Assembly (NCBI GenBank): GCA_044238735.1
Contig: JBIICS010000003.1
Span: forward strand, 1 to 49,883
Direction of reading: 5' to 3'
DNA from: Bacteroidia bacterium
GTDB taxonomy: Bacteria > Bacteroidota > Bacteroidia > UBA4408
Length of the DNA: 49,883 nucleotides
In this document: piece by piece, positions 4,990 to 35,119 of the stretch
Layout of the letters: every line of letters starts with the position of its first letter
How positions within the stretch are numbered: the stretch's first letter is position 1
Notes under the pieces: generated by a model
What the model was told of the DNA's origin: nothing
The model's database searches: none
What the model saw: only the letters and a program-made list of their open reading frames with translations
Position numbers and translations under genes: made by a program

Positions 4990-5002
4990 CTTAATTAAAT
5001 TA

Positions 5003-5113
5003 AGTTGAGAGTTGAGAGTTAAAAGTTGATAGAAATGTTTATTAATTAAAAGGCATAATATAGGGTACAAATTCAGAAATTTACTCTAAACTTTCAACTT
5101 TTAACTTTCAACT
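5003..5113. repeat. Inverted pair of tandem heptamer arrays (AGTTGAG/AGTTAAA units) around a ~50-60 bp core
   Basis: Left arm 5003-5030 is AGTTGAG AGTTGAG AGTTAAA AGTTGAT. Right arm 5081-5113, reverse-complemented, is AGTTGAA AGTTAAA AGTTGAA AGTTTAG AGTAA. Confidence 0.85.
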
Positions 5114-5115
5114 GA

Positions 5116-5904
5116 TTATAGGCATCCCGTTCTTCCACCATCAACTGGTACATTAATTCCGGTAATGTAAGAGGCAGCGGGTGAAACCAAAAAAGAAACC
5201 GCGTTTGCAATTTCATCTGCCTGAGCAAATCTGCCCATGGGTATTTCGTGGATCATTTCATTCCGAAGTTCTTCTATTGACCTGCCGGTTTTACTCGATT
5301 TAGACTCCAATAACTGTTTAATTCTAATAGTTTCGGTGGCGCCGGGTAGTACATTATTAACTGTTATTCCAAAAGGAGCAATTTCAATAGATAAGGTTTT
5401 AGACCAATTAGCAACAGCGGCGCGGATAGTATTGGAAACTCCTAATCCCTTTAATGGTTGCTTAACCGATGTTGATATAATATTTACAATTCTTCCATAC
5501 CCCTCAGCTTTCATTCCGGGTATTACAGATTGCGCCAATATGTGATTGCATATCAGATGATTATTAAAGGCTGCAGTAAACTCCTGATTCTTTGCATTTA
5601 AAATCTCACCGCCTGCCGGTCCACCAGTATTATTTACGAGTATATGAAAAGGTCCTTTTTTTTCTATGATGGAATCTATTTCCATTTTTACGGATGCCGG
5701 TAAAGAAAAATCGGCAGAAACAGTGTAGTGCCTTTGTTTTAGAGGGCGGGGTAACTCTTTTTTAGTTTTTTCAAGTTTACGTAAGTCGCGGGCAACCAAA
5801 ACGATACTGGCTCCCATTTCTGCCAATTGAAATGCTATTGCTCTTCCAATACCCTGAGTGCTTCCACACACAATAGCCTTTTTTCCCTCTAAATTTAAGT
5901 TCAT
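5116..5904 (-). CDS. SDR family oxidoreductase
   Basis: Rossmann motif VCGSTQGIG, NNTGGP, NNVLPG, C-terminal YITGINVPVDGG. Confidence 0.92.
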   Translation of the reverse strand: MNLNLEGKKAIVCGSTQGIGRAIAFQLAEMGASIVLVARDLRKLEKTKKELPRPLKQRHYTVSADFSLPASVKMEIDSIIEKKGPFHILVNNTGGPAGGEILNAKNQEFTAAFNNHLICNHILAQSVIPGMKAEGYGRIVNIISTSVKQPLKGLGVSNTIRAAVANWSKTLSIEIAPFGITVNNVLPGATETIRIKQLLESKSSKTGRSIEELRNEMIHEIPMGRFAQADEIANAVSFLVSPAASYITGINVPVDGGRTGCL

Positions 5905-6019
5905 TAGATAAAAATAGGAAAATGTTTAATATTCTCTTTAAAAAATGACCTTTAATTCGATCGTCATTTCAATGTATATTAAAAAAATTCATAATTTAGA
6001 TTCAAATATCAGATAAATA

Positions 6020-7318
6020 ATGTTGACCAACAATTTATTTAAGAGTTTTTTTATTGTTTTTGCCCTATTCATTATATCCTTTAAACAGGCATTCTGCCAA
6101 GCCCGATTAATACTAAATAACGGGGCTTTTATTAATATTAATAATGGTGCTTTTTTAGTGATTGACAATAGTGCTTCAAACGCAATTACACGAAATACGA
6201 CAGGTCATATAATTTCTGAAGGCGAGAACAACCGAGTAGCCTGGGCAATCAGAACTAATTCAGGTTCATACACTGTTCCTTTTGGTTACAGTACTTCAGA
6301 TTATATTCCGTTAACCTTTAATATTAGTTCTGCCGGAGTTGGTGCCGGTAATTTTATATTTAGTACTTACCGCTCGCCATCATGGGACAATAATGCCAAT
6401 AAACCAACGGGCGTTTCGCACATGTATCAAAACGGAACATTAAGCAACAACAGTGCAAAAGTAATTGATCGATTTTATCAAATCGACGCAACAACGGCAA
6501 CGTATACAACAAAGCCGGTTATAAACAGTGTTTTACTTTCTTATGCAGATGCCGAACATTCGGTTGCCAGTAATTCAATTACCGAAGCCAATTTAGGCGC
6601 ACAATATTTTACTTCAGGATCCGGATGGTTGCCTAATTTTGGGATTGGAACTGCTAATACTTTAAATAACAATGTAACAGCATCCAGCAATTTACCTCTG
6701 TTAAATTCCACAAAATGGTGGACTCTTGTTGATAAATCTAGCCCTTTGCCAATTACACTTAGTTACTTTAGAATATTATGCGAAACCAATAAAACAATTT
6801 TTGATTTTCAAACAACATCAGAACGTAACACACACTTTTTCGAAATTAAAGTAATTGAAAACGGCGAGTTAAACACCATTGCCAGTATAGCTGCTCAAGG
6901 CAATAGTAATCAGGTTAAAAATTACGACTATCTATTTCAAGGAATTTTTTCTAATGAAAGTTTATTTTATTTAGACGAAATCGATTTAGATGGTGAAAGC
7001 CATCAATATGGACCATTTCAATATCAATCCTTTTGTAATGAAACTAATGACGAAGGATTTTCTAACGTGGTTGTATTCCCTAATCCTGCCCGAGAAGAAA
7101 TTAATGTAAATTTCACCAATTTAACACAAGGAGATTTAGAGATTGTTTTAACTAACGCAATCGGACAAACAGTATTTCATAAAAAGTTTGAAAATCTAAT
7201 GACAGAGTCAACTATTAAAATACCCATAGAAAACCTTTCAAGAGGTATTTACTTTCTAAACATAAACAATAACAAGAAATCACAAAAATCATTCAAAATA
7301 TCACTTGCAGAACCATGA
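6020..7318 (+). CDS. T9SS type A sorting domain-containing secreted protein
   Basis: Signal peptide (FCQA); LPITLSYF Ig-like linker; CTD VVFPNPAREE...LSRGIYFL...KSFKI. Confidence 0.85.
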   Translation: MLTNNLFKSFFIVFALFIISFKQAFCQARLILNNGAFININNGAFLVIDNSASNAITRNTTGHIISEGENNRVAWAIRTNSGSYTVPFGYSTSDYIPLTFNISSAGVGAGNFIFSTYRSPSWDNNANKPTGVSHMYQNGTLSNNSAKVIDRFYQIDATTATYTTKPVINSVLLSYADAEHSVASNSITEANLGAQYFTSGSGWLPNFGIGTANTLNNNVTASSNLPLLNSTKWWTLVDKSSPLPITLSYFRILCETNKTIFDFQTTSERNTHFFEIKVIENGELNTIASIAAQGNSNQVKNYDYLFQGIFSNESLFYLDEIDLDGESHQYGPFQYQSFCNETNDEGFSNVVVFPNPAREEINVNFTNLTQGDLEIVLTNAIGQTVFHKKFENLMTESTIKIPIENLSRGIYFLNINNNKKSQKSFKISLAEP

Positions 7319-9408
7319 AAATGAGATTCGTTTTAGCGTTAATGCTTCTATTTACTGGTGTTAAAGCACAAAATATAGGCATCAATACGGATGGAAGCAC
7401 CCCAGATACAAAAGCACTTTTAGACATAAAGGGATCCGGATCTGGCTTGTTAATTCCTCGTATGGCATGGAGTTCAAGACCATCTGGTTTAACAGCTACC
7501 CAAAACGGTTTAATTATTTACAGCACAGACGGTGATGGAACTAATGGAGTAGGGTTTTATTATTATAATAATCCTAACTGGTTGCCTTTATTTGACAATA
7601 ATAAGGGTTGGAGTTTAAAAGGAAATGCAGGTATTACTCCTCCAGCATCCCCCACAACTTATGGAACCTCAACGTTTGGAACATCTGAAAATTTTTTAGG
7701 AACAACCGATGCACAGCCCCTTACTTTAGGCACTAATAGTCGTGAAAGAATGCGCATACTCAGCTCCGGTTTAATTGGCGTTGGAACTTCAACACCTGCA
7801 ATGTTAATAGATGTAAGCGGATCGACAACCACAAATAATGATGCCGTGTTAAGAGTTACTGCAACCGGCACCACAGGATCAGTTAATGCTATAATTGGTA
7901 CAAGCGCCTCCACCACGGGAACAGGTGTATATGGAAGAACTACTGCCGCTTCGGGTTCGAATAACGGAGTAGTGGGTGAGATTACAGCAGGAACTGGTAA
8001 TGGCGTTAAAGGCTTTGCTGGTACTGCATCAGGAAACAGTAGCACTGGCGTTTGGGGCTTAAACAATTCTACAACAACTGGTGCAATTGAGGCATTTGGT
8101 GTTTTGGGAACCAGTAAAGGTGCTGGAGCCACCTCCGCATCTCACTATGGTTTATTTGGTGACGCCGCAGGAGGCTCAAATAATTTTGGAGTATTTGGTA
8201 AAGTAAGTGGAGCCGCTACAAATAATTATGGTATTTACGGTGATGCGTCAGGAGCATCTACAAATAATATTGCAGCGTTTTTTTCTGCCACTGGCGCAAC
8301 AAACAATTATGGTCTAATTGTGCCAAATGGTGGGGGTAGAATTGGTTTTGGTACTTCAACCCCATCTTTTTTAGTGGATGTAAGAGGTTCGGCTTCGAGT
8401 GACCTAATTTACGCATCCAACTCTGGTACTGGAGATGTTTTTAGAGGAATTGCAAATGGTGACATACAATATGCTTGTTTTTTTGGAAATAATTCCCCAA
8501 ATACAAACGGAACTGGATATTTAATTACAAACTCAAATGCTGGTTTACAAGGGCAAATAAATAATACTCAACAATATTCATTCGGGGTTTATGGAAATAG
8601 TGGAGATGGATTAAGATCGGGTGGAGTTATAGGCTCTAATGGATATGCAGGTGGTTGGGGTTGCTTAGGTTACAGAACTTCGGGAGGCGGCAGATGGTCA
8701 TTATATTACTCTAACGATGGTACTTTAGGTGGGGCAAATACAGGTTCTGGTAAAGCAACAAGCGATAATTTAAAACCCGCAAATGGTTTAGGAATGGGCG
8801 GTTATGCCAGTTTGCTCGGAGGATTTGTGAGAGGTGAAATTTACGGGATGTTTATAAAAGGCGAACGTATGGGTATGTATATCGATGGCAAAACATTCTC
8901 TAACCATATTTATGCAGTAATATTAAATGGAAAGAAGGATAAAAAGACGGTTACCTATACCCAGTTAAGTGAAAAACCTAGTTTAACATATACAGGAAAA
9001 ACTAAATTAAATAATGGTGAATGCTTTATTCCTTGGAGCGATAATGTTCTTAATAATAATGAAATAAACGAAGATGATATAAATTTTAGTATAACTCCAC
9101 TAGGGAATTGTAAAGGACTTTATGTAGCCGAGGTAAATAAAAAGGGGTTTTTTGTAAAGGAATTAATGGATGGAAATAGTAATGTAAGTTTTAATTACAC
9201 CGTTATTTTAAGTAACTTAAATTTAGATGATAGTGCTCCCGAAGAAATTTTAGATAAGGAATTTGATAAAAATATTAAAGCCGTAATGCAGAACGAAAAT
9301 GACTCAAAAATTATATCAAAAGGCATGTATTGGGATGGTAATAACCTAATTTTTGATAATCCTCCAGAAAATTCTGTTATTGAAAAAGCTTATAAGAAAA
9401 TAGATTAA
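7315..9408 (+). CDS. Secreted Gly-rich fibre-like (tail-fibre/adhesin-like) repeat protein
   Basis: Signal peptide (VKA-Q); NIGINTDGSTPD..ALLDIK..GLLIPRM head motif; repeated IG(V/F)GTSTP; about 9 G[VLI][YFVWKL]G repeats; no T9SS CTD; overlaps the upstream stop (ATGA). Confidence 0.7.
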   Translation: MKMRFVLALMLLFTGVKAQNIGINTDGSTPDTKALLDIKGSGSGLLIPRMAWSSRPSGLTATQNGLIIYSTDGDGTNGVGFYYYNNPNWLPLFDNNKGWSLKGNAGITPPASPTTYGTSTFGTSENFLGTTDAQPLTLGTNSRERMRILSSGLIGVGTSTPAMLIDVSGSTTTNNDAVLRVTATGTTGSVNAIIGTSASTTGTGVYGRTTAASGSNNGVVGEITAGTGNGVKGFAGTASGNSSTGVWGLNNSTTTGAIEAFGVLGTSKGAGATSASHYGLFGDAAGGSNNFGVFGKVSGAATNNYGIYGDASGASTNNIAAFFSATGATNNYGLIVPNGGGRIGFGTSTPSFLVDVRGSASSDLIYASNSGTGDVFRGIANGDIQYACFFGNNSPNTNGTGYLITNSNAGLQGQINNTQQYSFGVYGNSGDGLRSGGVIGSNGYAGGWGCLGYRTSGGGRWSLYYSNDGTLGGANTGSGKATSDNLKPANGLGMGGYASLLGGFVRGEIYGMFIKGERMGMYIDGKTFSNHIYAVILNGKKDKKTVTYTQLSEKPSLTYTGKTKLNNGECFIPWSDNVLNNNEINEDDINFSITPLGNCKGLYVAEVNKKGFFVKELMDGNSNVSFNYTVILSNLNLDDSAPEEILDKEFDKNIKAVMQNENDSKIISKGMYWDGNNLIFDNPPENSVIEKAYKKID

Positions 9409-9552
9409 TTTTTTAAACCCTATACTCTTGCTTTTTTTCAAATTTGAGGGGCTGCCCCCCATTTCAATCTTATTTATTCAATGTAACAAGTTGTTGCTTT
9501 TTATCGTAAAAAAAATTAAATTAGTAGTAAATAAAATAGCATAGGACTAATC

Positions 9553-10044
9553 ATGTCTCTTTTTTTTAAATATTGTTTAGGTTTTTACTTAATTCTAGGA
9601 TTTTTTTTATTAAATCCCATTTTAATTTTGGGACAGGACTTACCTGCAGATTCCACCACAAAAGCAAATTATAAGGCTTATGATGACTTAATAAATAATG
9701 AGGTGGTAATGAAGTATTATACAAAAGAGGATCTTAATAAACTTTACGAGCAGGATAAAAATAAACTTCTTCAATTACACACCTATTTCTTTAAGTCCTA
9801 TACAATCACGCCAATAGAGGGATATACCGGATTAAGACCCCGACACAATACTTTTGACGTTTTTAAATATGAATCGTACCGCAAAAAAAGCGATGTATTT
9901 GTTTCCGAAGATTTATTTAAAGGATATAAAATTGAATTAAAATCGGATGAACAAATTCAACATATTGTTCCAGCCCAAATTAAACAGAAAGCCTTAAAGA
10001 ATAGAGAGATTTATAATGCAAAAAAGGAAAAAGAAATAGAGTAA
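9553..10044 (+). CDS. Hypothetical exported protein
   Basis: 163 aa with a hydrophobic N-terminus; its stop is 1 nt before the start of the next gene. Confidence 0.75.
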   Translation: MSLFFKYCLGFYLILGFFLLNPILILGQDLPADSTTKANYKAYDDLINNEVVMKYYTKEDLNKLYEQDKNKLLQLHTYFFKSYTITPIEGYTGLRPRHNTFDVFKYESYRKKSDVFVSEDLFKGYKIELKSDEQIQHIVPAQIKQKALKNREIYNAKKEKEIE

Positions 10045-10045
10045 A

Positions 10046-13000
10046 ATGAATGTATTCTTACAAAATATTAAAAAATTAGTTAGCAAATATCTTGTATTTA
10101 TATTCCTGCTTTTATTTGGGTTTTTTACATTTAAGTCGTGGGCACAACCTGCAAACAACGAATGTGGCGGTGCGGTTACGTTAACCGTAAATGCAGCTTG
10201 TTCTAATACGGCCGGCACCACAACGGGTTCTACGGGGAACGCCGGTAACCCTGCTCCTTGCGTTGGAACAGCCGACGATGATGTTTGGTATAAATTTACT
10301 GCCAATAGTCCCGACCAAAAAATAACTGTTTCGTGTAATTCTGGTTTTGATCCTGTAGTACAGATTTTTTCGGGTTCTTGCGGGGCATTAATTTCACAGT
10401 TTTGTCAGGATGATGGCGGAGATGGAGTAAGTGAAATTTTGGATTTAACCGGATTTGGAGTTGGAAGTACTTATTTTGTTCGTGTATTTCACTATTACAC
10501 CGGCGTTGGTACCGGAAATTTTAATATCTGTGTTACCGGAACTCCTCCCGCTTTAAATGATGAACCGTGCACCGCAATTGATTTACCCGAAGTTACCTCT
10601 GCCTGTGTTTATAGTATTTATTCGCTTGCCTCTGCTACCAATACAGCCACTCCCGCATCTCCAGGGTGTGGGTGGAATGGTAAAGATCTTTGGTTTAAAG
10701 CTATTATTCCTCCTAACGGCAAAATAGATATATCCACTTACTCTGTTTCCGGAGGAACTTCTGATCCAACCATGGCTATTTACTCTGGTTCAGTTTGCAG
10801 TTCACTAACATTTATAAGTTGTGACGACAATTCTGGGCCTGGAAGTTTACCTTATTTAAATTTAAGTGGAAGAACACCCGGCGAAATCATTTGGATAAGA
10901 GTTTCCAGTAGTACCGGCATTGGAGATGGCCGATTTAAATTATGCGTGTCTTCTCCTGTTAATGACGATTGTGGATCTTCTTTATTCGTTTGTGATATAA
11001 ATGGCTTTTCTGGTTCAACACTATATAGTTATACCATTGATATGGGAGCCTTGGAGGAATTTAGTGGTGGGATTTTTGGACAAACTGGCGACGGCGTTTC
11101 TACTACTATAGAAAATAATAGTTGGTTGGCTTTTACAGCCAGTGCAACCAGTGCCTCGCTAAATGTAACCATTTCTGATTGTTGGAATGGACAAGGCATT
11201 CAAATGGAAGTAATAAGTGGTACGTGCGGTAATGTAGCCTCTTTTGTTTCGAACTCCAACTACCTTCAAACAACAACTTCTCAAACTTTAACTGCAACCG
11301 GACTAACTATAGGAAATACCTATTATTTAATGATAGACGGATATGCGGGAGACGTTTGTAATTACACCATTACGGGCACCTCCGGGGTAAGGTCGCTAAC
11401 CGTTACTCCTGCTACTGCAAATGTATGCAATGGTTCATCCATAACCCTTACTGCAAATCCGGTTGGTTTTGGAAATGCCACTTACAGCTGGTACTCAGAT
11501 CCTCCCGGATTTTCGGGTAGTTCTGCAACTGTTACCGCCAACCCTGTAGAGTATACCAAATATTATGTAGTGGTTACCGGTTCGTGTAACGAAGTTCAGG
11601 AAGCAAATTCTACTATTAATGTTCCTAATCCTAACAAGGTATTTACCTGGACAGGAGGCGGAACAAATACTAATGACAATTGGCAGGACGTAAATAATTG
11701 GGGAAGCTTTGCAGGATGCTTACCGGATTGTAATAATTCGGTTACCATCCCCTCCTCACCTTCGGTAAACGCAACTAATTTTCCAAAATTAAATTCTGCT
11801 GCTGCATGCAAAAATCTTATAATTCAAGATGATCCCGTTACTGCAGACGCGAACTACTCATTGTCAATTTTTAATTCGGGCAATCTTTCGGTTTGCGGCA
11901 ATATTTCCTTATATGGTACTATGCCTACAAATACTCATTACTCAAGTAATAATTCTTCAAGAATTACCTTTAGTGGTTCTTCTCCACAATTTTTTTATGC
12001 TTCAGCCTTATCATCCAATAACTTACCCAGTATTACTGTAAACAATACAAATGGAGTAACCATTTTGGATGGCAAAGACGCCAGCGGAACTTATAAAGAT
12101 ATGTCGATAAATCCTTCCGGAAATCTGGTTTTAAGTTCTGGAATAATTAATACAAGTGGAGCACGCAATGTAGTAATTAATAATCCAAACACAAACGCAA
12201 TAACAAGTCATTCAACAAATAGCTACATTAACGGTAGATTAACGAGGGCAGTAAATGCAACAGGCTCATATGATTTTCCTGTTGGTAATAGCACCGCATA
12301 CGAATTGGCTAATATAAATTTAAATAGTGTTAGTGGTGGTTTAAATTCCATCAATGCCTTTTTTGAACCTGCATTTGATGAAACGGATTTAATACAAACA
12401 CCTACTGTTTTAGAACCAGACGATATTAATAAAGAATATGAAGGCTTTTTAAATAATGGAGGAACCGGTGTTGGTTCCGGTACTTTAATACCCAACGTTT
12501 GGACAATAACTCCAAATTCGGGATCTGCTAATTATTCCATTACCCTTCACGGAAGAAATTACAATAATGCATCCGGTTTTGTTCATACTGTTGGTAAACG
12601 AAATACACCTATTACTTGTTTGCCAACTTGGAGTGCCTCGGGAAGTTATTCCACAAATGGCAACGCAAGTAATGTGGTTTCTGCAACCAGAACCAATGTT
12701 ACCGGTTTTTCTCAGTTTGTTATACTAAGAGGACTTAACGTTTTGCCTATTTCCCTAATTGACTTTGAAGCTAAATGCAAAGGAGATCAGACCACGCTAA
12801 TTTGGTCTACTGCTCAAGAAGTAAATAATAGTCATTTTGTTATTGAACGTGCATGCAATGAAGAATTAGTTTTTGAAGACATTGCCGAAGTAAATGGGGC
12901 AGGAAACTCGAACACCATTCAAACTTACAGCCTATCAGTACCTACTACTTCTGATCGATGTTACTATCGCTTAAGGCAAGTAGACTATGACGGCAAAGAA

Positions 13001-13294
13001 GAATCATTTCCTATAATAGAAGCTAATTGTAATGAATCTAAACCTTTCAGTAATATTATTGTTTATCCAAATCCTTTTAACGATCAAATTTTAATTGCCT
13101 GCAATGATTGTATTACCGATAAAATTCACATCAAAATATTTTCAGCATTAGGTACACTTGTATTTGAAAAGAATTACTCTAATATAACCGTGCTAAATGA
13201 AAAAATAGAACTTAAAGGACTTAGCAAAGGGGTTTATTTCGTCGAATTGAATGATGGGCTTAATAAAGAAGTTAAACAATTGGTTAAGAATTAA
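10046..13294 (+). CDS. Large T9SS type A cargo protein with three Cys-containing PPC/CUB-like repeats
   Basis: Signal peptide (SWA-Q); three ~135-aa repeats starting N[ND][ED][CP] with D[VL]W[YF]/NSW and ending CV[TS]/YTI; LPISLIDF linker; CTD IVYPNPFND...LSKGVYFV...KQLVK. Confidence 0.85.
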   Translation: MNVFLQNIKKLVSKYLVFIFLLLFGFFTFKSWAQPANNECGGAVTLTVNAACSNTAGTTTGSTGNAGNPAPCVGTADDDVWYKFTANSPDQKITVSCNSGFDPVVQIFSGSCGALISQFCQDDGGDGVSEILDLTGFGVGSTYFVRVFHYYTGVGTGNFNICVTGTPPALNDEPCTAIDLPEVTSACVYSIYSLASATNTATPASPGCGWNGKDLWFKAIIPPNGKIDISTYSVSGGTSDPTMAIYSGSVCSSLTFISCDDNSGPGSLPYLNLSGRTPGEIIWIRVSSSTGIGDGRFKLCVSSPVNDDCGSSLFVCDINGFSGSTLYSYTIDMGALEEFSGGIFGQTGDGVSTTIENNSWLAFTASATSASLNVTISDCWNGQGIQMEVISGTCGNVASFVSNSNYLQTTTSQTLTATGLTIGNTYYLMIDGYAGDVCNYTITGTSGVRSLTVTPATANVCNGSSITLTANPVGFGNATYSWYSDPPGFSGSSATVTANPVEYTKYYVVVTGSCNEVQEANSTINVPNPNKVFTWTGGGTNTNDNWQDVNNWGSFAGCLPDCNNSVTIPSSPSVNATNFPKLNSAAACKNLIIQDDPVTADANYSLSIFNSGNLSVCGNISLYGTMPTNTHYSSNNSSRITFSGSSPQFFYASALSSNNLPSITVNNTNGVTILDGKDASGTYKDMSINPSGNLVLSSGIINTSGARNVVINNPNTNAITSHSTNSYINGRLTRAVNATGSYDFPVGNSTAYELANINLNSVSGGLNSINAFFEPAFDETDLIQTPTVLEPDDINKEYEGFLNNGGTGVGSGTLIPNVWTITPNSGSANYSITLHGRNYNNASGFVHTVGKRNTPITCLPTWSASGSYSTNGNASNVVSATRTNVTGFSQFVILRGLNVLPISLIDFEAKCKGDQTTLIWSTAQEVNNSHFVIERACNEELVFEDIAEVNGAGNSNTIQTYSLSVPTTSDRCYYRLRQVDYDGKEESFPIIEANCNESKPFSNIIVYPNPFNDQILIACNDCITDKIHIKIFSALGTLVFEKNYSNITVLNEKIELKGLSKGVYFVELNDGLNKEVKQLVKN

Positions 13295-13298
13295 AAGC

Positions 13299-14972
13299 AT
13301 GAAAAAAATATATTCATATTATCTTTTATTTGCTTTTTTGTTAATTGCAAACCTTAATTATATTGAAGCTCAAACAACATTTTCGAATACGGGAAATATA
13401 ACTATAAATTCAAGTGGCAACGCAAGTCCTTTTCCATCAACAATTGCAGTATCTGGTTTAGGAAGTTCAATAACCAATATTACTGTTAGAATGACAAGTA
13501 TTCAACATACATATTTTGATGATGTTGACATAATGTTGGTAGCCCCTAATGGCGCCAGATTAATTTTAATGTCTGATTGTGGGGGAGGGAATAGTGCTAC
13601 TAGAAATTATGTATTTAGTGATGCGGGTGGAGCCAATCTTTCAGATGCGTCTTTGAGTGCAGACGGCACATATAAACCTACTGATTTTGAAACGGGTGAA
13701 AATTTGGGTGGAGGAACAGCCACTATAACTAGTTTTGCTAGTCTTAATGGTTCTAATCCAAATGGAAATTGGTCATTATTTGTTTTTGATGATGTTGGTG
13801 GTGATGCTGGGCTAATTACCAATGGTTGGTCAATAACCATCACTGCAATAAATCCAGCCTTTCGAACTACATTCACTGCCATGAACACAGGATCCGCTAA
13901 TTGGTGTGCAGGTGAAACCAGAAATGTAACTGTAACTGTAACTAATTCAGGCACTAGTTCCTGGACTGATGGTGGTGGCCAGGATTTCAACATAGGGGTT
14001 AAATGGAATGCCGATCCAGATTATCTTGTAAGAGTGGATGCGCAAAACTTAGCTCCCGGTGCCAGCAGAACATACACATTAACAGTAACCGCTCCTGCAA
14101 CTGCCGGTTCCAACAATTTAAGATTTGATGTTGTAAAGGAAGGAGATTGTTGGTTTGGAAACAATAATGGTAGTTGCGGACCCGGAAACTCTGCTTATAC
14201 ATCCTCTGCTATAACGATCTCTTCTACTCCAAACCCACCCAACCCCTATTCAAATCAAAACCCAGATTGCGGAAGAGTTAAAATTTTAGAAGCCACTTCT
14301 ACATCTTCAAATATATTGTACTATTGGCAAGGAACCAATGCCAGCGGGACCAGCACAAGTAATAATGCTAACATTCCTTTCTTTGCTAATTCATCTGGCA
14401 CCTATTATGTTCGTGCTTACAACTCATCTACAGGTTGCTGGAGCTCGGGCTCAGGTTCATTGGCAGTTACGGTTACTGGGCCTACGGGCGGTTCTGTTTC
14501 GGGCGGCACAACGGTTTGCGGCTTAACCTCAAACTCTGCTACTCTAACTTTAACGGGGCATAGTGGAAATATCATTCGCTGGGAAAAAAGTTTTTCTCCT
14601 TTTACTTACTGGGATCCTATTACAAATACCACCACTTCGTGTACGGTATTAAATATTTCAGAGGAAACTAGGATTAGAGCTGTAATACAGAGTGCGGTTT
14701 GCTCTGCAACAGCAAGCTCATCTTTTACTACAATTTCTGTAACCAATGCATCCACTGCAAATGCAGGCATAGACCAATACCGTTGTACAGGTACGACCGC
14801 TACGCTTGCCGCCTCGGGAGTTGGAACATGGTCTGTTGTTGGTGGTTCTGCTTTAGTTACTACCCCTTCAAGCCCGGTTTCTGCGGTAACTGCATTATCC
14901 TCCGGGCCTAATGTTTTTCAATGGTCGGTAAGTGGTACTTGCCCGGATTTTGTTGTAATTACAAGACCTTAA
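13299..14972 (+). CDS. Secreted multidomain protein (proprotein-convertase P-like domain plus Ig-like domains), no recognisable CTD
   Basis: Start moved from 13251 to ATG 13299 (MKKIYSYYLLF signal peptide, 4 nt after the upstream stop). P-domain motifs HTYFDDVDIMLVAPNG and NPNGNWSLFVFDDVGGDAG.ITNGWSI; Ig-like TVTNSG...LAPGAS.TYTLTVTAP; ends in an ANAG.DQ Ig repeat. Confidence 0.75.
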   Translation: MKKIYSYYLLFAFLLIANLNYIEAQTTFSNTGNITINSSGNASPFPSTIAVSGLGSSITNITVRMTSIQHTYFDDVDIMLVAPNGARLILMSDCGGGNSATRNYVFSDAGGANLSDASLSADGTYKPTDFETGENLGGGTATITSFASLNGSNPNGNWSLFVFDDVGGDAGLITNGWSITITAINPAFRTTFTAMNTGSANWCAGETRNVTVTVTNSGTSSWTDGGGQDFNIGVKWNADPDYLVRVDAQNLAPGASRTYTLTVTAPATAGSNNLRFDVVKEGDCWFGNNNGSCGPGNSAYTSSAITISSTPNPPNPYSNQNPDCGRVKILEATSTSSNILYYWQGTNASGTSTSNNANIPFFANSSGTYYVRAYNSSTGCWSSGSGSLAVTVTGPTGGSVSGGTTVCGLTSNSATLTLTGHSGNIIRWEKSFSPFTYWDPITNTTTSCTVLNISEETRIRAVIQSAVCSATASSSFTTISVTNASTANAGIDQYRCTGTTATLAASGVGTWSVVGGSALVTTPSSPVSAVTALSSGPNVFQWSVSGTCPDFVVITRP

Positions 14973-15081
14973 TAGTTATCGCTTTCATACTACTTAAACA
15001 GACCCATTAGAACATCTTTAATCAGGTTCATTACTGCCCAAATATGCTTTTAAATTCAAGCCGTTTAAACTTTGCAAACCT

Positions 15082-16224
15082 TTATTTGTCAATCGCTAAT
15101 CTTTCTTTAGAACTAAAAGCAAGCAAACAAACAATTATAATAATTAGATTAGACAGGCCAAGTATAGCATTGGCCTCATAAATTGAATTCAGCTTAGGGC
15201 CCATTAAATCTTTCGAGTTAACAGAATAAAAGATTAAGCCAATAATTAATATAATCTTTTCATAAACTTTAAGCTCACTAAATACACATAAGATCACAAA
15301 AATTAAGGGCAATGACATTAAAAAATGTTGCTCGTCTGTGATAATAAAATTAGGGATAAGCGACAAATTAATCATCATCCAGAGTTTAGTAGCGTTTTCT
15401 TTATTTACTTTTTTTAATATTAAAAAAAGTAAGAATTGTATGGCAACAAATAAGAATAATAATCCTTGTAAACCCATTTTCATTCCAAAAAAATAATTAA
15501 AAATATAATCAAACGTATAGGAGCTAAAGACCTGATTACTGTGATTTTTCAAGCTTTCAAACCAACCCATCCAAAGATCGAATAGATCTTTTCCGTTTAT
15601 TAATAATTGAAAAGCAATCAAACCTACAGATAAAAATATAGTCTTAACTAATAGTTTATAATCAAAAACTAAAAGCGGAATTAATACAAATACACTTATT
15701 GGTTTTAGGAAAATTAAAAACGTAATTAAAAACGATGACCAATTTTTATTGATTTTATAGAAATAGATGGATGCAACTAAAAAGAAAACCAAAAAAACAT
15801 TTACATTTCCCAGATGCATCTCTCTAGTAAGGTGAACAGCAATACAAAGAAAACTCAATATACTGCAGGTAATTTCTGCCTTAGAGCTAAGACTTATACC
15901 ATAGAACTTACTTTTAGTTAAATAATAAAATATTCCAATAATGGCAAATAAAATAAATGCAGTATGTATAACACGAACCATTTCGAACGTAAAAAAGTTC
16001 ATAGGATAAAAGAATAGTAAACTGGGCGGTGGATATTTAAAGAAACCAGTTTCTAGCCCATAATAATTAAGATAAGGCGATACTCCTTTTTTATAATCAT
16101 TTAAAGCCCCATAGTATACTTTTAAATCGTTGGTGAAAAATTTTTTGTTTATAGATTCTATGAGCACAAGGGCCAATACGAATAATAAAAAAATCAGATT
16201 ATACCATTTCTTAAATAAGCTCAT
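15082..16224 (-). CDS. DUF2029 / glycosyltransferase family 87-like polytopic membrane protein
   Basis: NDLKVYY, FKYPPPSLLFF, LGNVNVF and FLKP motifs; multiple TM helices; overlaps the purN stop. Confidence 0.75.
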   Translation of the reverse strand: MSLFKKWYNLIFLLFVLALVLIESINKKFFTNDLKVYYGALNDYKKGVSPYLNYYGLETGFFKYPPPSLLFFYPMNFFTFEMVRVIHTAFILFAIIGIFYYLTKSKFYGISLSSKAEITCSILSFLCIAVHLTREMHLGNVNVFLVFFLVASIYFYKINKNWSSFLITFLIFLKPISVFVLIPLLVFDYKLLVKTIFLSVGLIAFQLLINGKDLFDLWMGWFESLKNHSNQVFSSYTFDYIFNYFFGMKMGLQGLLFLFVAIQFLLFLILKKVNKENATKLWMMINLSLIPNFIITDEQHFLMSLPLIFVILCVFSELKVYEKIILIIGLIFYSVNSKDLMGPKLNSIYEANAILGLSNLIIIIVCLLAFSSKERLAIDK

Positions 16225-16793
16225 AATACAGATAGTATGTATTCTTCTATTGTGGAGGGCAGATACTTTTGTTCAAGTTTATGAATTTTGACTGCTAAAA
16301 TTTCTGGAGAATCATTTGCTTCTATAAAACATTTATACTGTTTAATTATTTTTCCTTTATCATATTCTTCATTAACAAGATGAATAGTAATTCCGCTTTC
16401 TCTCTCTTTGGCTTCAATAACAGCTTTATGAACATTTAATCCGTACATACCTTTACCTCCAAATTTGGGTAATAAAGACGGATGAAGATTAATAATTCTA
16501 TCCTTAAATGAGGTAGTTAAAAAAGGAGGGATTAACCATAAAAAACCGGCCAACACAATAAAGTCTATATCGCTTAGTTTTCCTAATAAGCACGCAGCGT
16601 TTAAAAATTCCTCCTTTTTTAATAAAATAGTTTCAATTTCGGTGTTTTTAAACTTGTTAATTACAGCAGCTTCTGGCTTATTACAAATAAGCTTCTTAAC
16701 GGCAATTTTATGATGATTTTTAAAATAATGATATAAATTGAGCGCATTACTGCCCTCACCGGATGCAAAAATGGCTATGTTTAGGGTCCTCAC
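16221..16793 (-). CDS. purN: Phosphoribosylglycinamide formyltransferase
   Basis: IAIFASGEGSNA, VLAGFL, INLHPSLLPKFGGKGMYG, SGITIHLVNEEYDKG; GTG start. Confidence 0.97.
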   Translation of the reverse strand: MRTLNIAIFASGEGSNALNLYHYFKNHHKIAVKKLICNKPEAAVINKFKNTEIETILLKKEEFLNAACLLGKLSDIDFIVLAGFLWLIPPFLTTSFKDRIINLHPSLLPKFGGKGMYGLNVHKAVIEAKERESGITIHLVNEEYDKGKIIKQYKCFIEANDSPEILAVKIHKLEQKYLPSTIEEYILSVL

Positions 16794-19397: not shown

Positions 19398-22300
19398 ATG
19401 ATTAGAAAATTATTCTCTCTCGTTTTAGGATTAGCGCTTGGATTTTTCCCCACACTTTTATTGGCACAAGATGCTAACAAATTATGGAAACCCATTACTA
19501 AAGACGCTTTAAAAGATGAACGGGAAATTCCTAGAGGCTCACTAGTTAAGCAAGGCTATTATTATCAACTTAACTTAAATCAATTAAAAGAACTATTAAG
19601 AAACGCTCCTTTAAGGGGGACATTTACAGGCCTTTCACCACTAATTATATATTTCCCCGACGCTTACGGCTCATTTAGCAAATATGCTGTTATGGAAGCT
19701 CCTGTATTGCATCCAGAATTGGCGGCTAAGTATCCTGCAATTAAAAGTTATGCTGCTCAGGGCATCGATGATCCAACAGCAACATTACGATTTAGTGTTA
19801 CTCCATTTGGATTGCACGCTATGGTTTTATCTGGCAAGAATCCTACTAATTACATTGATCCTTATACTGTCAATAGAAATTTCTATGTGGTTTATGACAA
19901 GCAACAGGTGCAAAACGTTAATAATTTCTTTGAGTGTAATTTAAATGAAGGCATGAAACTTCCTTCTACAGGAAATGGTCCTTCTACCACCCTCGGTAAT
20001 ATAAACGATCAGAAACTGAGAACATACAGACTCGCACAATCCTGCAATGCAGAGTATGGAAATATTTTTGCAACAAATCCAGGAACCGAAAAAGCCGATA
20101 TTCAAGCACAAATGGCTATAACTATGACGCGTGTAAATGGTGTTTATGAAAGGGATTTAGCTATTACAATGACCTTTGTTCCCAATAATGACTTATTGAT
20201 TTATTATGGCAGTACTTCTGCTGATCCTTGGTCGGGCGAATTTAATACTAAAACTGCCCAGGTTATAGATGCTGCTATAGGCGTTGCAAATTACGACATC
20301 GGCCATAACTTCAATACTTCTGGTGGAGGAAGTGCCGGCTGTATAGGTTGTGTTTGTACCAGCCAAAGTCAATCGGGAACCCATAAAGGGCGTGGTTACA
20401 CCGGAAGTTCAAATCCTACAGGCGATCCTTTTGATATTGATTATGTGGCTCACGAAATGGGCCATCAGTTCGGTGGTTATCATGTTATGAATACCTGCAG
20501 CAGAAGTGGTAGCGGATCCACAGAGGTTGAACCCGCAAGCGGAAGCTCCATTATGGGCTATGCCGGAATTTGCAGTTCAAATGTTCAACCGAATAGCCAT
20601 GATGACTTTGCATACGTAAATATTCGCGATATTAGTGATAATATTCAAACTGGAGCAAGTTCTTGTGGAGCTCAAACGGTCTTAATTAATCAACCGCCAA
20701 CAGCAAGTGCAGGTTTAGATTTTGTGATTCCTAAGAGCACAGCGTATGTTTTAGAGGGCGCTGCTACGGATCCCGATGGAACAGCAGGCTTAACTTATAA
20801 CTGGGCTCAAAATGACCCCACTCGGTCGCCCGGAAGTGCTGCTCCGCTTTCTACTTACACTGTTGGTCCACTTTACAGAGCTCTTTCACCATCTACACTT
20901 TCTTATCGATACATGCCTAATATTAATACTATTTTATCCAACTCCCTGCAAAATACCTGGGAGGTTACTCCATCTGTTGCCCGTACATTAAACTTTTCCT
21001 TTATTGTTCGTGATAACGATGCTAATGGCGGACAAACCGCATCCGATTTAATGAAAGTTACTGTAGATGGAAATGCTGGCCCTTTTGTTGTAACCTCTCA
21101 AGCTACAACAGATACAATTGATGCAGGAAGCACTATTAACGTTACATGGAATGTTGCGAATACTAATGCGGGAAGCGTTAATTGTCAGAATGTAGACATT
21201 TTATTTTCAGTGGACAGCGGATTAACGTATCCTATTGTATTAGCCAGTGCTGTCCCTAATAATGGATCTGCATCAGTTATTATGCCCCAAAATGCTGCCA
21301 CTAACAAAGGAAGATTAATGGTAAGAGGTAATGGGAATATTTTCTTTGATATTAATAATGCATACTTAACTGTTCAGGCCGCCGAGTTCTTTCTCAGCTC
21401 ATTAAATAGTACTCAATCCAATTGCCCTGATGTTGATTCTGTAAATTATAGTTTAAACTATCAAACCTTTGTTGGATTTAGTGATACTACCTATTTTTCG
21501 TTGAGCGGCTTACCTGCCGGATTAACGGCTACCTTTACCCCAGCTTATGCTGTTAACAACAATACTTCAGTAGATTTATCTATTACAGGAATTGATTCCA
21601 GTTTTATCGGATCTTATGGACTTACGGTTGTAAGTACTTCGGCTAATGTTGTTAAGAATACATTGTTATCCTTAAATGTGTTAAACAATAATTTAGGATC
21701 AGTGGCTTTAAGCTTTCCTATAGATTCTGCTACAGGTATTTCAAATAATATTACCTTGAGTTGGCAAAGTACAGGAGGGGGAAGTACCTATGATTTAGAA
21801 ATTTCAAACGATTCTACGTTTACTAATATCTTCTCAAGTGCTAATTCTATAACTTCTAATTTTTATACTGTAAGTGGATTGATTTCTGCAACCAAATATT
21901 ATTGGAGGGTAAAAGCCAGCAATGTATGTTCTAATGGGGTTTATGGTAAAGCATTTAGTTTTATTACCAACAATTGTAATAATTTTATATCCGCTAATGT
22001 ACCTATTACAATATCTGCCTCAGGTACACCCACAATAAATTCTAATCTGAATATTTCGTTCAGCGGTGTTATCTCTGATGTTGATGTTATAGGCATAAAA
22101 GGAACTCATACATTCATAAGCGATTTAACGTTCAGTTTAAAGAGTCCTGCTAATACTACCTTAAAATTAATTGATCAGATTTGTGATTCTGAAAACAATT
22201 TTGATTTTAGTTTGGATGATGCCGCCGCAAATAATGTTTTGCCTTGTCCGCCAATTGGAGGTGGTACTTATCAACCTGAGGTATTATTAAATAGTTTTAA

Positions 22301-35022: not shown

Positions 35023-35037
35023 ATTGCTTAATTTACA

Positions 35038-35045
35038 CAAAATTA
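35038..35045 (-). promoter_or_regulatory. -7 promoter element for the FG-GAP gene
   Basis: Minus strand reads TAATTTTG, 15 nt upstream of ATG 35022. Confidence 0.55.
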
Positions 35046-35119
35046 GGGGGATTTTGAGCAAGGGGGATTTTAAATATATAAATACCTGATTTTCATATAT
35101 CTATAACGCCAAAAAAGAC

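Follow-up and report, generated by a model that had tools for sequence, protein, structure and literature searches.

Introduction

Type-A cargo proteins of the T9SS, such as the gingipains of Porphyromonas gingivalis and the S-layer proteins of Tannerella, carry an Ig-like domain followed by a C-terminal sorting domain (CTD) and are attached to the cell surface; to our knowledge they act on their own. The SprB/SprF gliding adhesin operon of Flavobacterium johnsoniae combines a type-B CTD cargo with a partner of the PorP/SprF family. In phages, Tfa and T4 gp38 are encoded just downstream of the tail-fibre genes and may stay on the fibre tip. Mosaic adhesive trimer (MAT) fibres have been described in Bdellovibrio bacteriovorus, for example Bd2133, Bd3182 and Bd1334 (PMC10769870; PDB 8ond, 8ojn/8onc and 8oml). 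Their N-terminal domain is presumed to bind tightly to some surface element, the identity of which is awaited (PMC10769870).

Organization of the five-gene region

The window is the whole stretch of DNA analysed, 49,883 nucleotides of a contig (JBIICS010000003.1) from a Bacteroidia bacterium. It contains five successive genes:

6020–7318, + strand: ORF1, 432 aa; predicted signal peptide (aa 1–26), O1dom (aa 27–250), Ig-like spacer (aa ~251–348) and CTD (aa 352–432)
7315–9408, + strand: ORF2, 697 aa; CTD-less phage-tail-fibre-like (MAT-like, non-S74) fibre with a putative signal peptide
9553–10044, + strand: ORF3, 163 aa; small putative exported or anchored protein, lineage-specific
10046–13294, + strand: ORF4, 1082 aa; large T9SS type-A cargo
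13299–14972, + strand: ORF5, 557 aa; CTD-less domain mosaic

The region consists of two separate things, the ORF1–ORF2 cassette and the neighbouring ORF3–ORF5 set. Direct reading of the junctions bore out the gene spacing given in a preliminary description of this DNA. The start of ORF2 lies on the stop of ORF1 in an ATGA overlap (CCATGAAAATG), and gaps of 1 nt and 4 nt separate ORF3 from ORF4 (GAGTAAAATG) and ORF4 from ORF5 (AATTAAAAGCATG). The spacer between ORF2 and ORF3 is 144 nt long. The length of ORF5 assumes the MKKIY start; the frame is also open from 13251, which would give 573 aa. By inspection, the N-terminus of each of the five products is hydrophobic, with a small residue and then Gln after the hydrophobic part; the putative signal peptides of ORF1 to ORF5 end, in this order, at AFC/Q, VKA/Q, ILG/Q, SWA/Q and IEA/Q.

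The region is flanked by housekeeping genes (purL, a short-chain dehydrogenase gene, GT87, purN, acpP, fabF and rnc). PurL is equally close, at about 83% identity, to its counterparts in Flavobacterium, Daejeonella and unclassified Bacteroidia, and no species representative was found to be syntenic. Three CTD proteins besides ORF1 and ORF4 are encoded in the window, as are PorU2 and PorV2 paralogues scoring above the NCBIfam cut-offs; the T9SS core genes sprA/sov and porKLMN were not found within it. A tie of the five genes to the nearby PorU2/PorV2 genes was considered and rejected, because the latter are missing from the other O1dom loci; an apparent mention of PorV2 in PMC10994853 proved to be a superscript artefact. 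Scans for sigma-70 promoters, terminators and the Bacteroidota -7 motif gave results at or below shuffle expectation. In lake metatranscriptomes, contigs provide patchy coverage of all five genes. One extends from the 3' end of ORF2 almost to ORF3, and another bridges the ORF3/ORF4 junction.

ORF1 and the O1dom

ORF1 has two annotated domains besides its spacer:

6098–6769, + strand: O1dom of ORF1, an uncharacterised beta domain of ~220 aa without Pfam or NCBIfam model
7073–7315, + strand: type-A T9SS C-terminal sorting domain of ORF1 (PF18962 over aa 352–423, E=4e-14; TIGR04183)

By the sorting-domain criterion ORF1 is a T9SS type-A cargo, as its CTD exceeds the curated cut-offs of PF18962 (53 bits, cut-off 27) and TIGR04183 (39 bits, cut-off 23). 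As judged from sequence comparisons, the O1dom is a previously undescribed domain and the sole distinctive part of the protein. Its region had no Pfam or NCBIfam match in seven O1dom-bearing proteins, and a PDB sequence search with the ORF1 family returned CTD or chance matches only. The family comprises 799 clusters at 50% identity, with a typical protein length of ~410–430 aa; larger members of ~1170 aa bear additional Ig_7 modules and are surface-protein-like. Conserved motifs in the family alignment include SGHIISEGE-N-V-W, G-Y-VPFG, VIDRFW and F-Y-D-EH.

The AF2 monomer model of ORF1 is all-beta, with a pLDDT of 73.8. A Foldseek search with the full model was uninformative on the O1dom, because the matches were dominated by the FN3/Ig tandem of spacer and CTD. 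In mature ORF1, conservation in the alignment peaks at aa 27–57, and this stretch coincides with the least confident part of the model (aa 25–45, pLDDT <50), a combination typical of a segment that becomes ordered upon binding.

Like the gingipains and the Tannerella S-layer proteins, ORF1 and ORF4 possess an Ig-like domain followed by a CTD; ORF1 differs in that its only distinctive domain is undescribed and that its gene is tied to that of a CTD-less fibre. The SprB/SprF operon is similar in that a T9SS-related surface filament, as ORF2 may be, has a dedicated partner gene, but the ORF1-type partner is a type-A cargo and not an outer-membrane barrel. No PorP/SprF gene was found within 5000–16300, and no CHU_C domain on ORF2, ORF3 or ORF5, the only overlap being a sub-threshold one with the type-A CTD of ORF4.

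The ORF2 fibre

Three parts are distinguished in ORF2:

7369–7659, + strand: N-terminal domain (aa 19–~115; QNIGIN...GLLIPR...YYY..W), proposed O1dom contact
7660–8904, + strand: beta-layered shaft (aa ~116–530), rich in Gly, Thr, Ser and Asn
8905–9405, + strand: globular C-terminal tip (aa ~531–697) without S74 chaperone domain, presumed ligand-binding end

ORF2 is classified by homology as a fibre of the MAT kind, which is putatively Sec-exported, is predicted to be trimeric and carries no T9SS signal. A profile of the fibre family built from 46 homologues matched the PDB entries 8ojn (E=6.6e-10), 8ond (Bd2133, E=1.1e-9) and 8oml (E=3.7e-4), with positions 119–302 of the profile aligning to the Bdellovibrio crystal structures. 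The structures 8oml and 8onc were matched by fold with a local identity of 38–40%. BFVD fold matches were phage tail fibres (E=2e-6), and Foldseek against the PDB gave only weak matches (E >0.08), which were phage or pyocin fibres and lectin-like tips. A precomputed match to PF26696 (PTL_trimer; E <=1e-5) is present on ORF2 and most of 120 listed homologues. The local Pfam copy, which may lack the PF26696 model, assigned no family to ORF2 or two other fibres, and no mention of PF26696 was found in the searched literature.

Conservation within the fibre family is highest in the N-domain, where column identity averages 54% across orders; species-representative genomes of Bacteroidota yield more than 600 matches to it. 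The model of the domain consists of five short strands with a pLDDT of 70–89. Identification of this domain as a trimeric membrane barrel, as in an inverse trimeric autotransporter, was rejected because the predicted strands of 4–6 residues are too short to span a membrane. The shaft has a low pLDDT in the monomer, compatible with a fold formed by the trimer only. The C-terminus is modelled as globular, with helices (aa 555–640, pLDDT 80–94). Neither Pfam nor NCBIfam matched the tip, whose family was found in 10 partnered fibres. The Peptidase_S74 domain (PF13884) that terminates some of the listed homologues, and that is found for example in the L012 fibre, was not detected on ORF2 with Pfam.

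The MAT fibres and ORF2 thus share a signal peptide, putative in ORF2, a beta-rich N-domain immediately after it and a long shaft, and in both fibre families the C-terminal tips are exchangeable and may or may not include an S74 chaperone; the likeness of the N-domain is one of position and beta-rich character, that of the shaft a profile match (E=7e-10). Unlike the predator Bdellovibrio, the host of ORF2 is a non-predatory member of the Bacteroidota. The tip fold of ORF2 is also a different one, and next to its gene lies that of a T9SS-tagged protein as a specific candidate partner, whereas for the Bdellovibrio N-domain a receptor is still awaited. Tail fibres with Tfa, or T4 gp37 with gp38, provide a parallel for a fibre gene tightly adjoined by a small partner gene. 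ORF1 and ORF2 differ from these by the lack of phage context and by a putative Sec signal on both, and the ORF1-type partner, besides bearing a T9SS CTD, stays constant while the tips differ. Trimeric autotransporters (type Vc) are fibrous adhesins as ORF2 may be, and one homologue is so annotated by JGI, but ORF2 has no C-terminal YadA-type anchor detectable with Pfam and its conserved terminal domain is the N-terminal one.

Pairing of O1dom and fibre genes

As judged from related loci, ORF1 and ORF2 (6020–9408) form a conserved two-gene cassette that recurs across the Bacteroidota. A locus search seeded by the ORF2 protein alone yielded 3 loci. Genes of related loci were called with a simple ORF finder and home-made HMMs, and the counts include the near-duplicate loci L028/L029 and L031/L032. 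In genome and metagenome collections together, a fibre gene lies directly beside 61 of 82 O1dom genes. Among the genome loci, 46 of 57 O1dom-superfamily genes adjoin a fibre gene, which shares the strand in 42 cases, and the gaps are mostly -4 to +40 nt; a CTD is present on 53 of the 57. The association was replicated in JGI metagenomes, with an adjacent fibre for at least 15 of 25 O1dom genes, and three further ones had a neighbouring fibre-like ORF that was truncated or without N-domain. The O1dom and fibre N-domain models matched none of 771 background genes. No description of the pairing was found in the searched literature. The preliminary description, which knew of no characterised system with this layout, was thus right about the pairing, whereas the fibre itself is of a described kind (MAT, PMC10769870).

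In the reverse direction, a CTD protein neighbours the fibre at 31 of 78 fibre-seeded loci (40%, against 6.8% in the background; binomial p=1e-16), and about 20 of these 31 neighbours are of the O1dom type. For two others, hhalign supported a partial O1dom (L089, 87%; L072, 56%). The possibility that the remainder are hidden O1dom proteins was rejected, as they belong to other families such as Calx-beta, GEVED and Laminin_G_3. None of the fibres at the 78 loci bears a CTD, and the CTD Pfam is absent from the 120 listed homologues. Only about a quarter of the fibre genes in the fibre-seeded loci have an O1dom neighbour. Some fibre genes occur in arrays of six to eight and many are solitary or in tandem, so that docks would either have to work in trans or be dispensable for many fibres.

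The O1dom gene is immediately downstream of the fibre gene in 32 of 46 pairs and comes first in the window and in 13 other adjacent pairs. The pair is kept across several orders and duplicates as a unit. Ohtaekwangia genomes contain two paralogous pairs in which both partners diverge in parallel, by about 0.47 between paralogues versus 0.28 between orthologues for the O1dom, and by about 0.37 versus 0.21 for the fibre N-domain. A mirror-tree comparison of O1dom and fibre N-domain gave a weak correlation confounded by phylogeny (Spearman 0.20, permutation p=0.036). The O1dom and the N-domain are constant among partnered fibres whose tips form at least 10 BLAST clusters, which suggests the constant end of the fibre as the partner. 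At L006 the pairing is kept with a fibre N-domain that is mostly lost, the first QNVGIN strand alone being left. A few O1dom genes (L014, L231, L238) have no fibre neighbour despite an apparently full context. In 11 of the O1dom loci, a recurrent neighbour is a sensor kinase with Reg_prop/Y_Y_Y domains.

The ORF3–ORF5 set

Compared with its relatives, the stretch from ORF3 to ORF5 (9553–14972) is recognized as a tightly packed putative operon of mosaic adhesin-like proteins confined to close relatives. ORF3 had no Pfam, NCBIfam or meaningful PDB match. It occurs only in identical contigs and at L007, where ORF2 is 72% identical; all relatives with ORF3 have an ORF2 at least 72% identical. ORF4 consists of three Cys-rich galactose-binding-like modules (aa ~36–445), an Ig-like domain and linker, an O1dom, an Ig-like spacer and a CTD. 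The O1dom is a diverged one:

12101–12778, + strand: diverged O1dom of ORF4 ('O4dom' subtype; aa 686–911; HMM E=5e-27; hhalign probability 99.4%)

The CTD of ORF4 (aa 1006–1082) scores above the curated cut-offs of PF18962 (50.4 bits, cut-off 27) and TIGR04183 (38.7 bits, cut-off 23), making ORF4 a type-A cargo by the same criterion as ORF1. Neither Pfam nor NCBIfam detected a CTD of either type on ORF2, ORF3 or ORF5; the preliminary assignment of sorting domains to two of the five proteins stands. The motifs GSY..P.G and LPI(T/S)L..F, noted beforehand as common to ORF1 and ORF4, reflect real homology and not chance, since BLASTP aligns aa 27–426 of ORF1 to the C-terminal part of ORF4 (aa 691–1081, E=1e-22). 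Two other CTD proteins of the window showed no O1dom match. With a diverged copy of the O1dom-Ig-CTD cassette at its C-terminus, ORF4 may serve as another dock, larger than ORF1. The O4dom subtype adjoins a fibre gene at L088.

ORF5 combines a proprotein-convertase P-domain, a CARDB/NEW3-like, an Ig_7 and a C-terminal PKD_6-like module. It has one full-length orthologue (91% identical), and relatives of its C-terminal half occur in unrelated contexts. Only 110 nt separate it from the convergent gene, which argues against the remnant of a lost CTD there. PDB sequence searches with ORF3, ORF4 and ORF5 gave CTD or chance matches only.

The arrangement recurs in a single, moderately close relative. 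At L006, an ORF4-like gene is followed after 2 nt by a gene with the C-terminal module of ORF5, downstream of an ORF1/ORF2-like pair; the genes between the two units differ from those of the window.

Discussion

The systematic pairing of a CTD protein with a CTD-less fibre is most economically explained by a two-component surface structure made of ORF1 and ORF2. In the reading we prefer, which we regard as evenly balanced and which is based on gene context, O1dom proteins are exported by the T9SS, become attached to the surface and dock the CTD-less fibre by its constant N-terminal part, ORF3–ORF5 being separate. ORF1 would leave the cell through the T9SS, its CTD would be cleaved off and the protein would be fixed on the cell surface. 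There the O1dom would bind the fibre at its constant N-terminal part and leave the variable tip facing outward as an adhesin. The fibre may also travel out through the wide T9SS pore as a hitch-hiker, attached to ORF1 while still in the periplasm. Points against this reading are the weak mirror-tree correlation, the many fibre genes without an O1dom neighbour, the reduced N-domain of the L006 fibre and the few O1dom genes without a fibre. We also know of no T9SS in Bdellovibrio, which nevertheless displays MAT fibres, so that in principle fibre export needs no T9SS.

In an extended version of this reading, O1dom proteins would be a dedicated class of T9SS cargo, both carrier and dock, with which the assembled fibre exits through the T9SS and on which it stays mounted. 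This extended version is unlikely. In the searched literature, no T9SS cargo was found that docks or carries a partner without CTD. If true, it would be the first partner-mediated T9SS export route, and the kind of surface receptor predicted for the N-terminal domain of MAT fibres would be identified.

It is rather unlikely that O1dom proteins are accessory factors of the fibre instead of anchors, either assembly chaperones or tip-bound adhesins resembling Tfa or T4 gp38. The prevalent gene order (32 of 46 pairs) is the fibre-then-chaperone order of phages, and the fibre itself is tail-fibre-like; however, the O1dom gene comes first in the 14 other pairs, the window's included. A periplasmic chaperone would also not need the T9SS CTD found on 53 of 57 proteins, and the O1dom is constant against at least 10 tip clusters, one of them with an S74 self-chaperone. 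The ~1170-aa O1dom proteins with extra Ig_7 modules, moreover, resemble surface proteins.

Still somewhat less likely, the two products may form no complex and be independent surface or secreted proteins co-regulated as an adhesin island, with the fibre surfacing by an unrelated route. Clusters of secreted-protein genes are common in Bacteroidota, the recurrent sensor kinases would fit such regulation, and most fibre genes (about 70%) have no O1dom neighbour. Yet the association is limited to one domain family and not general to CTD proteins, and neither model matched any of the 771 background genes. The two genes mostly overlap at stop and start or lie a few bases apart, and the pair survives across several orders and through duplication.

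The preliminary description proposed a single multi-subunit appendage of five genes, with ORF2 and ORF5 mounted on the CTD-bearing anchors ORF1 and ORF4. Conservation of the neighbourhood supports a joint structure for ORF1 and ORF2 (46 of 57 and at least 15 of 25 loci), whereas ORF3–ORF5 are found in close relatives only and the five genes are not one conserved module: no relatives of ORF3, ORF5 or the N-terminus of ORF4 were found in the vicinity of 31 genome loci retrieved with the ORF1 domain. A five-gene appendage is therefore improbable, even though the O1dom-Ig-CTD cassette ends both ORF1 and ORF4, L006 keeps both units in the same order and metatranscriptome contigs reach from ORF2 almost to ORF3 and across the ORF3/ORF4 junction. 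Against it also stand the 144-nt spacer, the different intervening genes of L006, and the mosaic nature of ORF5, with its single full-length orthologue and its relatives in unrelated contexts. That the fibre gene is a prophage or tailocin remnant with incidental neighbours is very improbable, since its tail-fibre-like fold and weak N-domain relatives on 20 IMG/VR contigs are outweighed by the lack of any tblastn match of ORF2 among 50,697 phage records, the housekeeping flanks, the putative Sec signal peptide and a family that is matched >600 times in genomes of Bacteroidota and is often arrayed in tandem.

Fibres with this N-domain are very common in Bacteroidota, and none of those examined bears the phylum's own secretion tag, so that their route to the surface and their hold on it call for an explanation. 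The same gap has been stated for the related MAT fibres of Bdellovibrio (PMC10769870). The O1dom family is a concrete and testable candidate for the missing link between fibre and surface, and its cultured carriers include Ohtaekwangia koreensis DSM 25262 and O. kribbensis CCUG 58938. If confirmed, docking by O1dom proteins would add a partner-dependent mode to the biology of the T9SS, and would make a large class of variable-tip adhesins, those of lake, soil and sludge Bacteroidota, accessible to study.

Gene layout and export signals

Five ORFs occupy positions 6020-14972. Two carry a type-A CTD (the C-terminal sorting domain of the T9SS) with scores well over the curated cut-offs, and a Pfam/NCBIfam search found no CTD of either type in the other three.

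6020-14972, all on the same strand: ORF1 to ORF5, in this order
ORF1: 432 aa, with CTD; its 3' end overlaps the start of ORF2 as ATGA
ORF2: 697 aa, CTD-less; followed by a spacer of 144 nt
ORF3: 163 aa, CTD-less
ORF4: 1082 aa, with CTD, after a gap of 1 nt; contains three galactose-binding-like modules rich in Cys and ends in an O1dom-Ig-CTD part of its own (O1dom is defined below)
ORF5: 557 aa from the MKKIY start, CTD-less, after a gap of 4 nt

The overlap and the two short gaps were read directly, and together with the CTD scores they bear out the layout given in the preliminary description: five ORFs, an overlap, gaps of 1 and 4 nt, and two CTD proteins. By inspection only, each of the five N-termini is a hydrophobic leader, after which come a small residue and Gln. 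By their tag, ORF1 and ORF4 are ordinary T9SS type-A cargo. The locus is flanked by purL and a short-chain dehydrogenase gene upstream, and by GT87, purN, acpP, fabF and rnc downstream; these are housekeeping genes, and no phage context was found among them.

A domain common to ORF1 and ORF4

Residues 691-1081 of ORF4 align with essentially the whole of mature ORF1 (BLASTP, E=1e-22), so that the motif likeness previously noticed between the two CTD proteins reflects a real shared domain. The common part consists of three pieces: a domain of about 220 aa, termed O1dom (aa 27-250 of ORF1, aa 686-911 of ORF4), an Ig-like spacer that starts with the LPI(T/S)L..F motif, and the CTD. In ORF1, ORF4 and five O1dom-bearing relatives, O1dom is covered by no model of Pfam or NCBIfam, and newer precomputed Pfam annotation of homologues reports the CTD alone. 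With O1dom alone as query, 1.84 billion representative proteins yielded 799 clusters at E<=1e-3, 486 of them at E<=1e-10. Most are 400-430 aa long and have the domain at residues ~20-245, in agreement with a leader, O1dom, spacer and CTD. The O1dom family is new. AF2 models ORF1 as all-beta (pLDDT 73.8), with the lowest confidence at aa 25-45, where some of the best-conserved residues lie.

ORF2 belongs with tail-fibre-like trimers

Precomputed annotation assigns PF26696 (PTL_trimer) to ORF2 and to the majority of the 120 homologues listed for it. A profile built from 46 homologues hits four crystal structures of MAT (mosaic adhesive trimer) fibres from Bdellovibrio, among them 8ojn at E=6.6e-10 and 8ond at E=1.1e-9. 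Only two parts of the ORF2 monomer model are confident, aa 20-95 (the N-terminal domain) and aa 555-640 (the C-terminal tip), a pattern expected if the shaft forms only in a trimer. Viral fold matches of the model are phage tail fibres (E=2e-6), and PDB fold matches, all weak, follow the same theme. Some homologues end in a Peptidase_S74 chaperone, a domain that Pfam does not find in ORF2. By homology, ORF2 is a new member of the known MAT/tail-fibre-like kind of trimers.

A prophage remnant was rejected, as its defining features are lacking: the flanks are housekeeping genes, and 50,697 phage genomes contain no relative of ORF2. Tests for the defining features of a type-B CTD/PorP system and of a trimeric autotransporter were negative, and both were likewise rejected.

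The best conserved part of the fibre family is the N-domain (aa 19 to ~115 of ORF2; QN[IV]GIN...GLLIPR...YYW.G..W), with a mean column identity of 54% across orders; species-representative genomes contain over 600 matches to it. All MAT fibres have a common N-terminal domain of ~130 aa, presumed to bind tightly a surface element yet to be identified (PMC10769870).

Pairing of O1dom and fibre genes

Through the O1dom alignment, 31 genome loci were retrieved and analysed by BLAST and home-built HMMs. Pooling O1dom-seeded, fibre-seeded and earlier-retrieved loci gave 57 genes of the O1dom superfamily (simple longest-ORF gene calls; home-built CTD, O1dom and N-domain HMMs; near-duplicates L028/L029 and L031/L032 included). 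A CTD is present on 53, the remaining ones being truncated. A fibre gene is directly adjacent to 46 of the 57, on the same strand in 42 of these pairs, with gaps mostly of -4 to +40 nt; the fibre gene precedes the O1dom gene in 32 pairs and follows it in 14. The pairs come from Chitinophagales, Sphingobacteriales, Cytophagales (Ohtaekwangia, Chryseolinea, Cyclobacteriaceae) and Flavobacteriales. Cultured bacteria are among the carriers, namely Ohtaekwangia koreensis DSM 25262 (L029, L032) and O. kribbensis (L020, L021). In an independent scan of JGI metagenomes, 15 of 25 O1dom genes were adjacent to a fibre gene, three more lay beside a fibre-like ORF that was truncated or without N-domain, and several others were at contig ends.

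In the reverse direction, 31 of 78 loci seeded by the fibre N-domain had a CTD-protein neighbour, compared with 6.8% for 740 non-CTD genes of purL-seeded loci (p=1e-16), a control whose taxon mix differs in being mostly Flavobacterium. About 20 of the 31 neighbours were of O1dom type; the others included Calx-beta, GEVED and Laminin_G_3 proteins, or CTD proteins without a further recognisable domain. No fibre carried a CTD, either in the 78 loci or among the 120 listed homologues. In L063, L068 and L097, five to eight fibre paralogues stand in tandem, and a single CTD gene lies at one end of the array or close to it, in L068 two genes past the last fibre gene. None of these three CTD proteins is recognisable as O1dom; one contains Laminin_G_3, and in the other two Pfam finds only the CTD.

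The evidence for an association of O1dom and fibre genes is strong, and the proposed pairing of a CTD protein with a CTD-less partner is kept across genomes for ORF1/ORF2. This near-obligate pairing is new; no description of it was found in literature searches touching on the subject.

Five contigs with fibre genes (L019, L110, L117, L086, L070) are labelled as Bifidobacterium, Rhizobium, Synechococcus, Competibacteraceae or Deltaproteobacteria MAGs and are probably mis-binned; in L019, L070 and L117 the fibre genes lie beside CTD genes typical of Bacteroidota. In 11 O1dom loci (including L017, L018, L019 and L022), large sensor kinases with Reg_prop/Y_Y_Y propellers, some of them hybrids with receiver and AraC domains, are encoded no more than four genes from the pair, and PorP/SprF-family genes recur in six. 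These genes may reflect regulation or the mere abundance of their families.

ORF3 to ORF5 lie outside the conserved cassette

The preliminary description had regarded the five genes as a single surface appendage module. The gene-neighbourhood comparison across Bacteroidota upheld the ORF1/ORF2 pair and not the five-gene set: none of the 31 genome loci contains relatives of ORF3, the N-terminus of ORF4 or ORF5. ORF3 was found only in relatives with an ORF2 at least 72% identical. ORF5 has one full-length orthologue and otherwise has single modules in common with many unrelated proteins; proteins resembling its C-terminal half occur in other gene contexts. In locus L006, from a moderately close relative whose ORF2 is 42% identical, an ORF1/ORF2-like pair with the same 4-nt overlap is followed by two different genes, an ORF4-like CTD protein and, 2 nt further, a protein ending in the C-terminal module of ORF5. 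Together with the missing relatives, this arrangement indicates that ORF3-5 are a lineage-level neighbour of the pair.

Proposed contact end of the fibre

Indirectly, three observations suggest that O1dom contacts the constant N-terminal part of the fibre and not its tip. The tips of O1dom-partnered fibres fall into at least 10 BLAST clusters, one holding an S74-bearing fibre and another ORF2, while O1dom and the N-domain are alignable throughout. Genomes of the Ohtaekwangia type have two paralogous O1dom-fibre pairs, and in both proteins paralogues within one genome are more distant than orthologues between species (~0.47 versus ~0.28 for O1dom, ~0.37 versus ~0.21 for the N-domain), which indicates that the pair was duplicated and then kept as a unit. 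At its N-terminus, mature ORF1 has a conserved stretch, modelled with low confidence, that resembles an interaction segment. Against an N-terminal contact, the global correlation of O1dom and N-domain distances is weak (r=0.20, p=0.036), and the fibre of L006 (3456-5792) is still paired although most of its N-domain is replaced and only the first strand, QNVGINTTGAAP, is kept. This fibre provides a natural deletion series for contact mapping.

Host population and expression

Several lake-water metagenome contigs carry the same ORF1-5 locus. PurL shows ~83% identity to Flavobacterium, to Daejeonella and to unclassified Bacteroidia alike, which places the host among uncultured freshwater Bacteroidia, without a close species representative. 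All five genes are patchily covered by lake metatranscriptome contigs at >=95% identity, at low depth and with possible DNA carry-over. One contig crosses the ORF3/ORF4 junction. In several studies of fresh water, the assembled metatranscriptomes include pieces of each of the five genes with 95-100% identity (positions 5000-16000; runs X25-X28, of which X27 and X28 yielded identical contigs); the population thus appears to express the locus in lakes.

Promoter and terminator motif scans gave no usable calls. A short palindrome rich in G+C (GAGGGGCTGCCCCCC) lies at 9440-9475 in the ORF2-ORF3 spacer, with a T-rich stretch after it; it was not called by the terminator scan. A metatranscriptome contig from the 3' end of ORF2 passes through it as far as 9547, six bases short of the ORF3 start.

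Other T9SS-related genes in the window

19398-22697, + strand: reprolysin-like metalloprotease with P-domain, 1099 aa, T9SS type-A cargo
25257-31321 region, - strand: PorV2-like gene, 364 aa (NF052325, 490 bits, cut-off 325)
25257-31321 region, - strand: PorU2-like C25 sortase paralogue, 1657 aa (NF052324, 733 bits, cut-off 450)
31379-32845, - strand: beta-propeller protein, 488 aa, with an N-terminal PSCyt1 cytochrome-c-like motif
32845-35061, - strand: FG-GAP repeat protein, 738 aa, T9SS type-A cargo

The PorU2-like paralogue has its own type-A CTD, and the PorV2-like gene is directly upstream of it. This second PorU/PorV-type pair lies ~10 kb from ORF1-5; no PorU2/PorV2 homologues were found near other O1dom loci. 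The metalloprotease and the FG-GAP protein, the other CTD cargo of the window, lack O1dom (hhalign). The beta-propeller gene sits between the FG-GAP and PorV2-like genes, and its product has a weak likeness to lactonase-type NosZ and hydrazine-synthase beta-propellers.

Proposed mechanism

Following established type-A biology, ORF1 would be exported by the T9SS and then attached at the surface. All that is said of binding, export and location is deduced from gene context. O1dom, extended on the Ig-like spacer, would hold the fibre at the fibre's N-terminal end, with the tip acting as a variable adhesin. ORF4 may be a second, larger dock; in locus L088, a protein with the ORF4 subtype of O1dom directly follows a fibre gene. 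The most interesting possibility is that the CTD-less fibre would cross the outer membrane in complex with its CTD-bearing partner.
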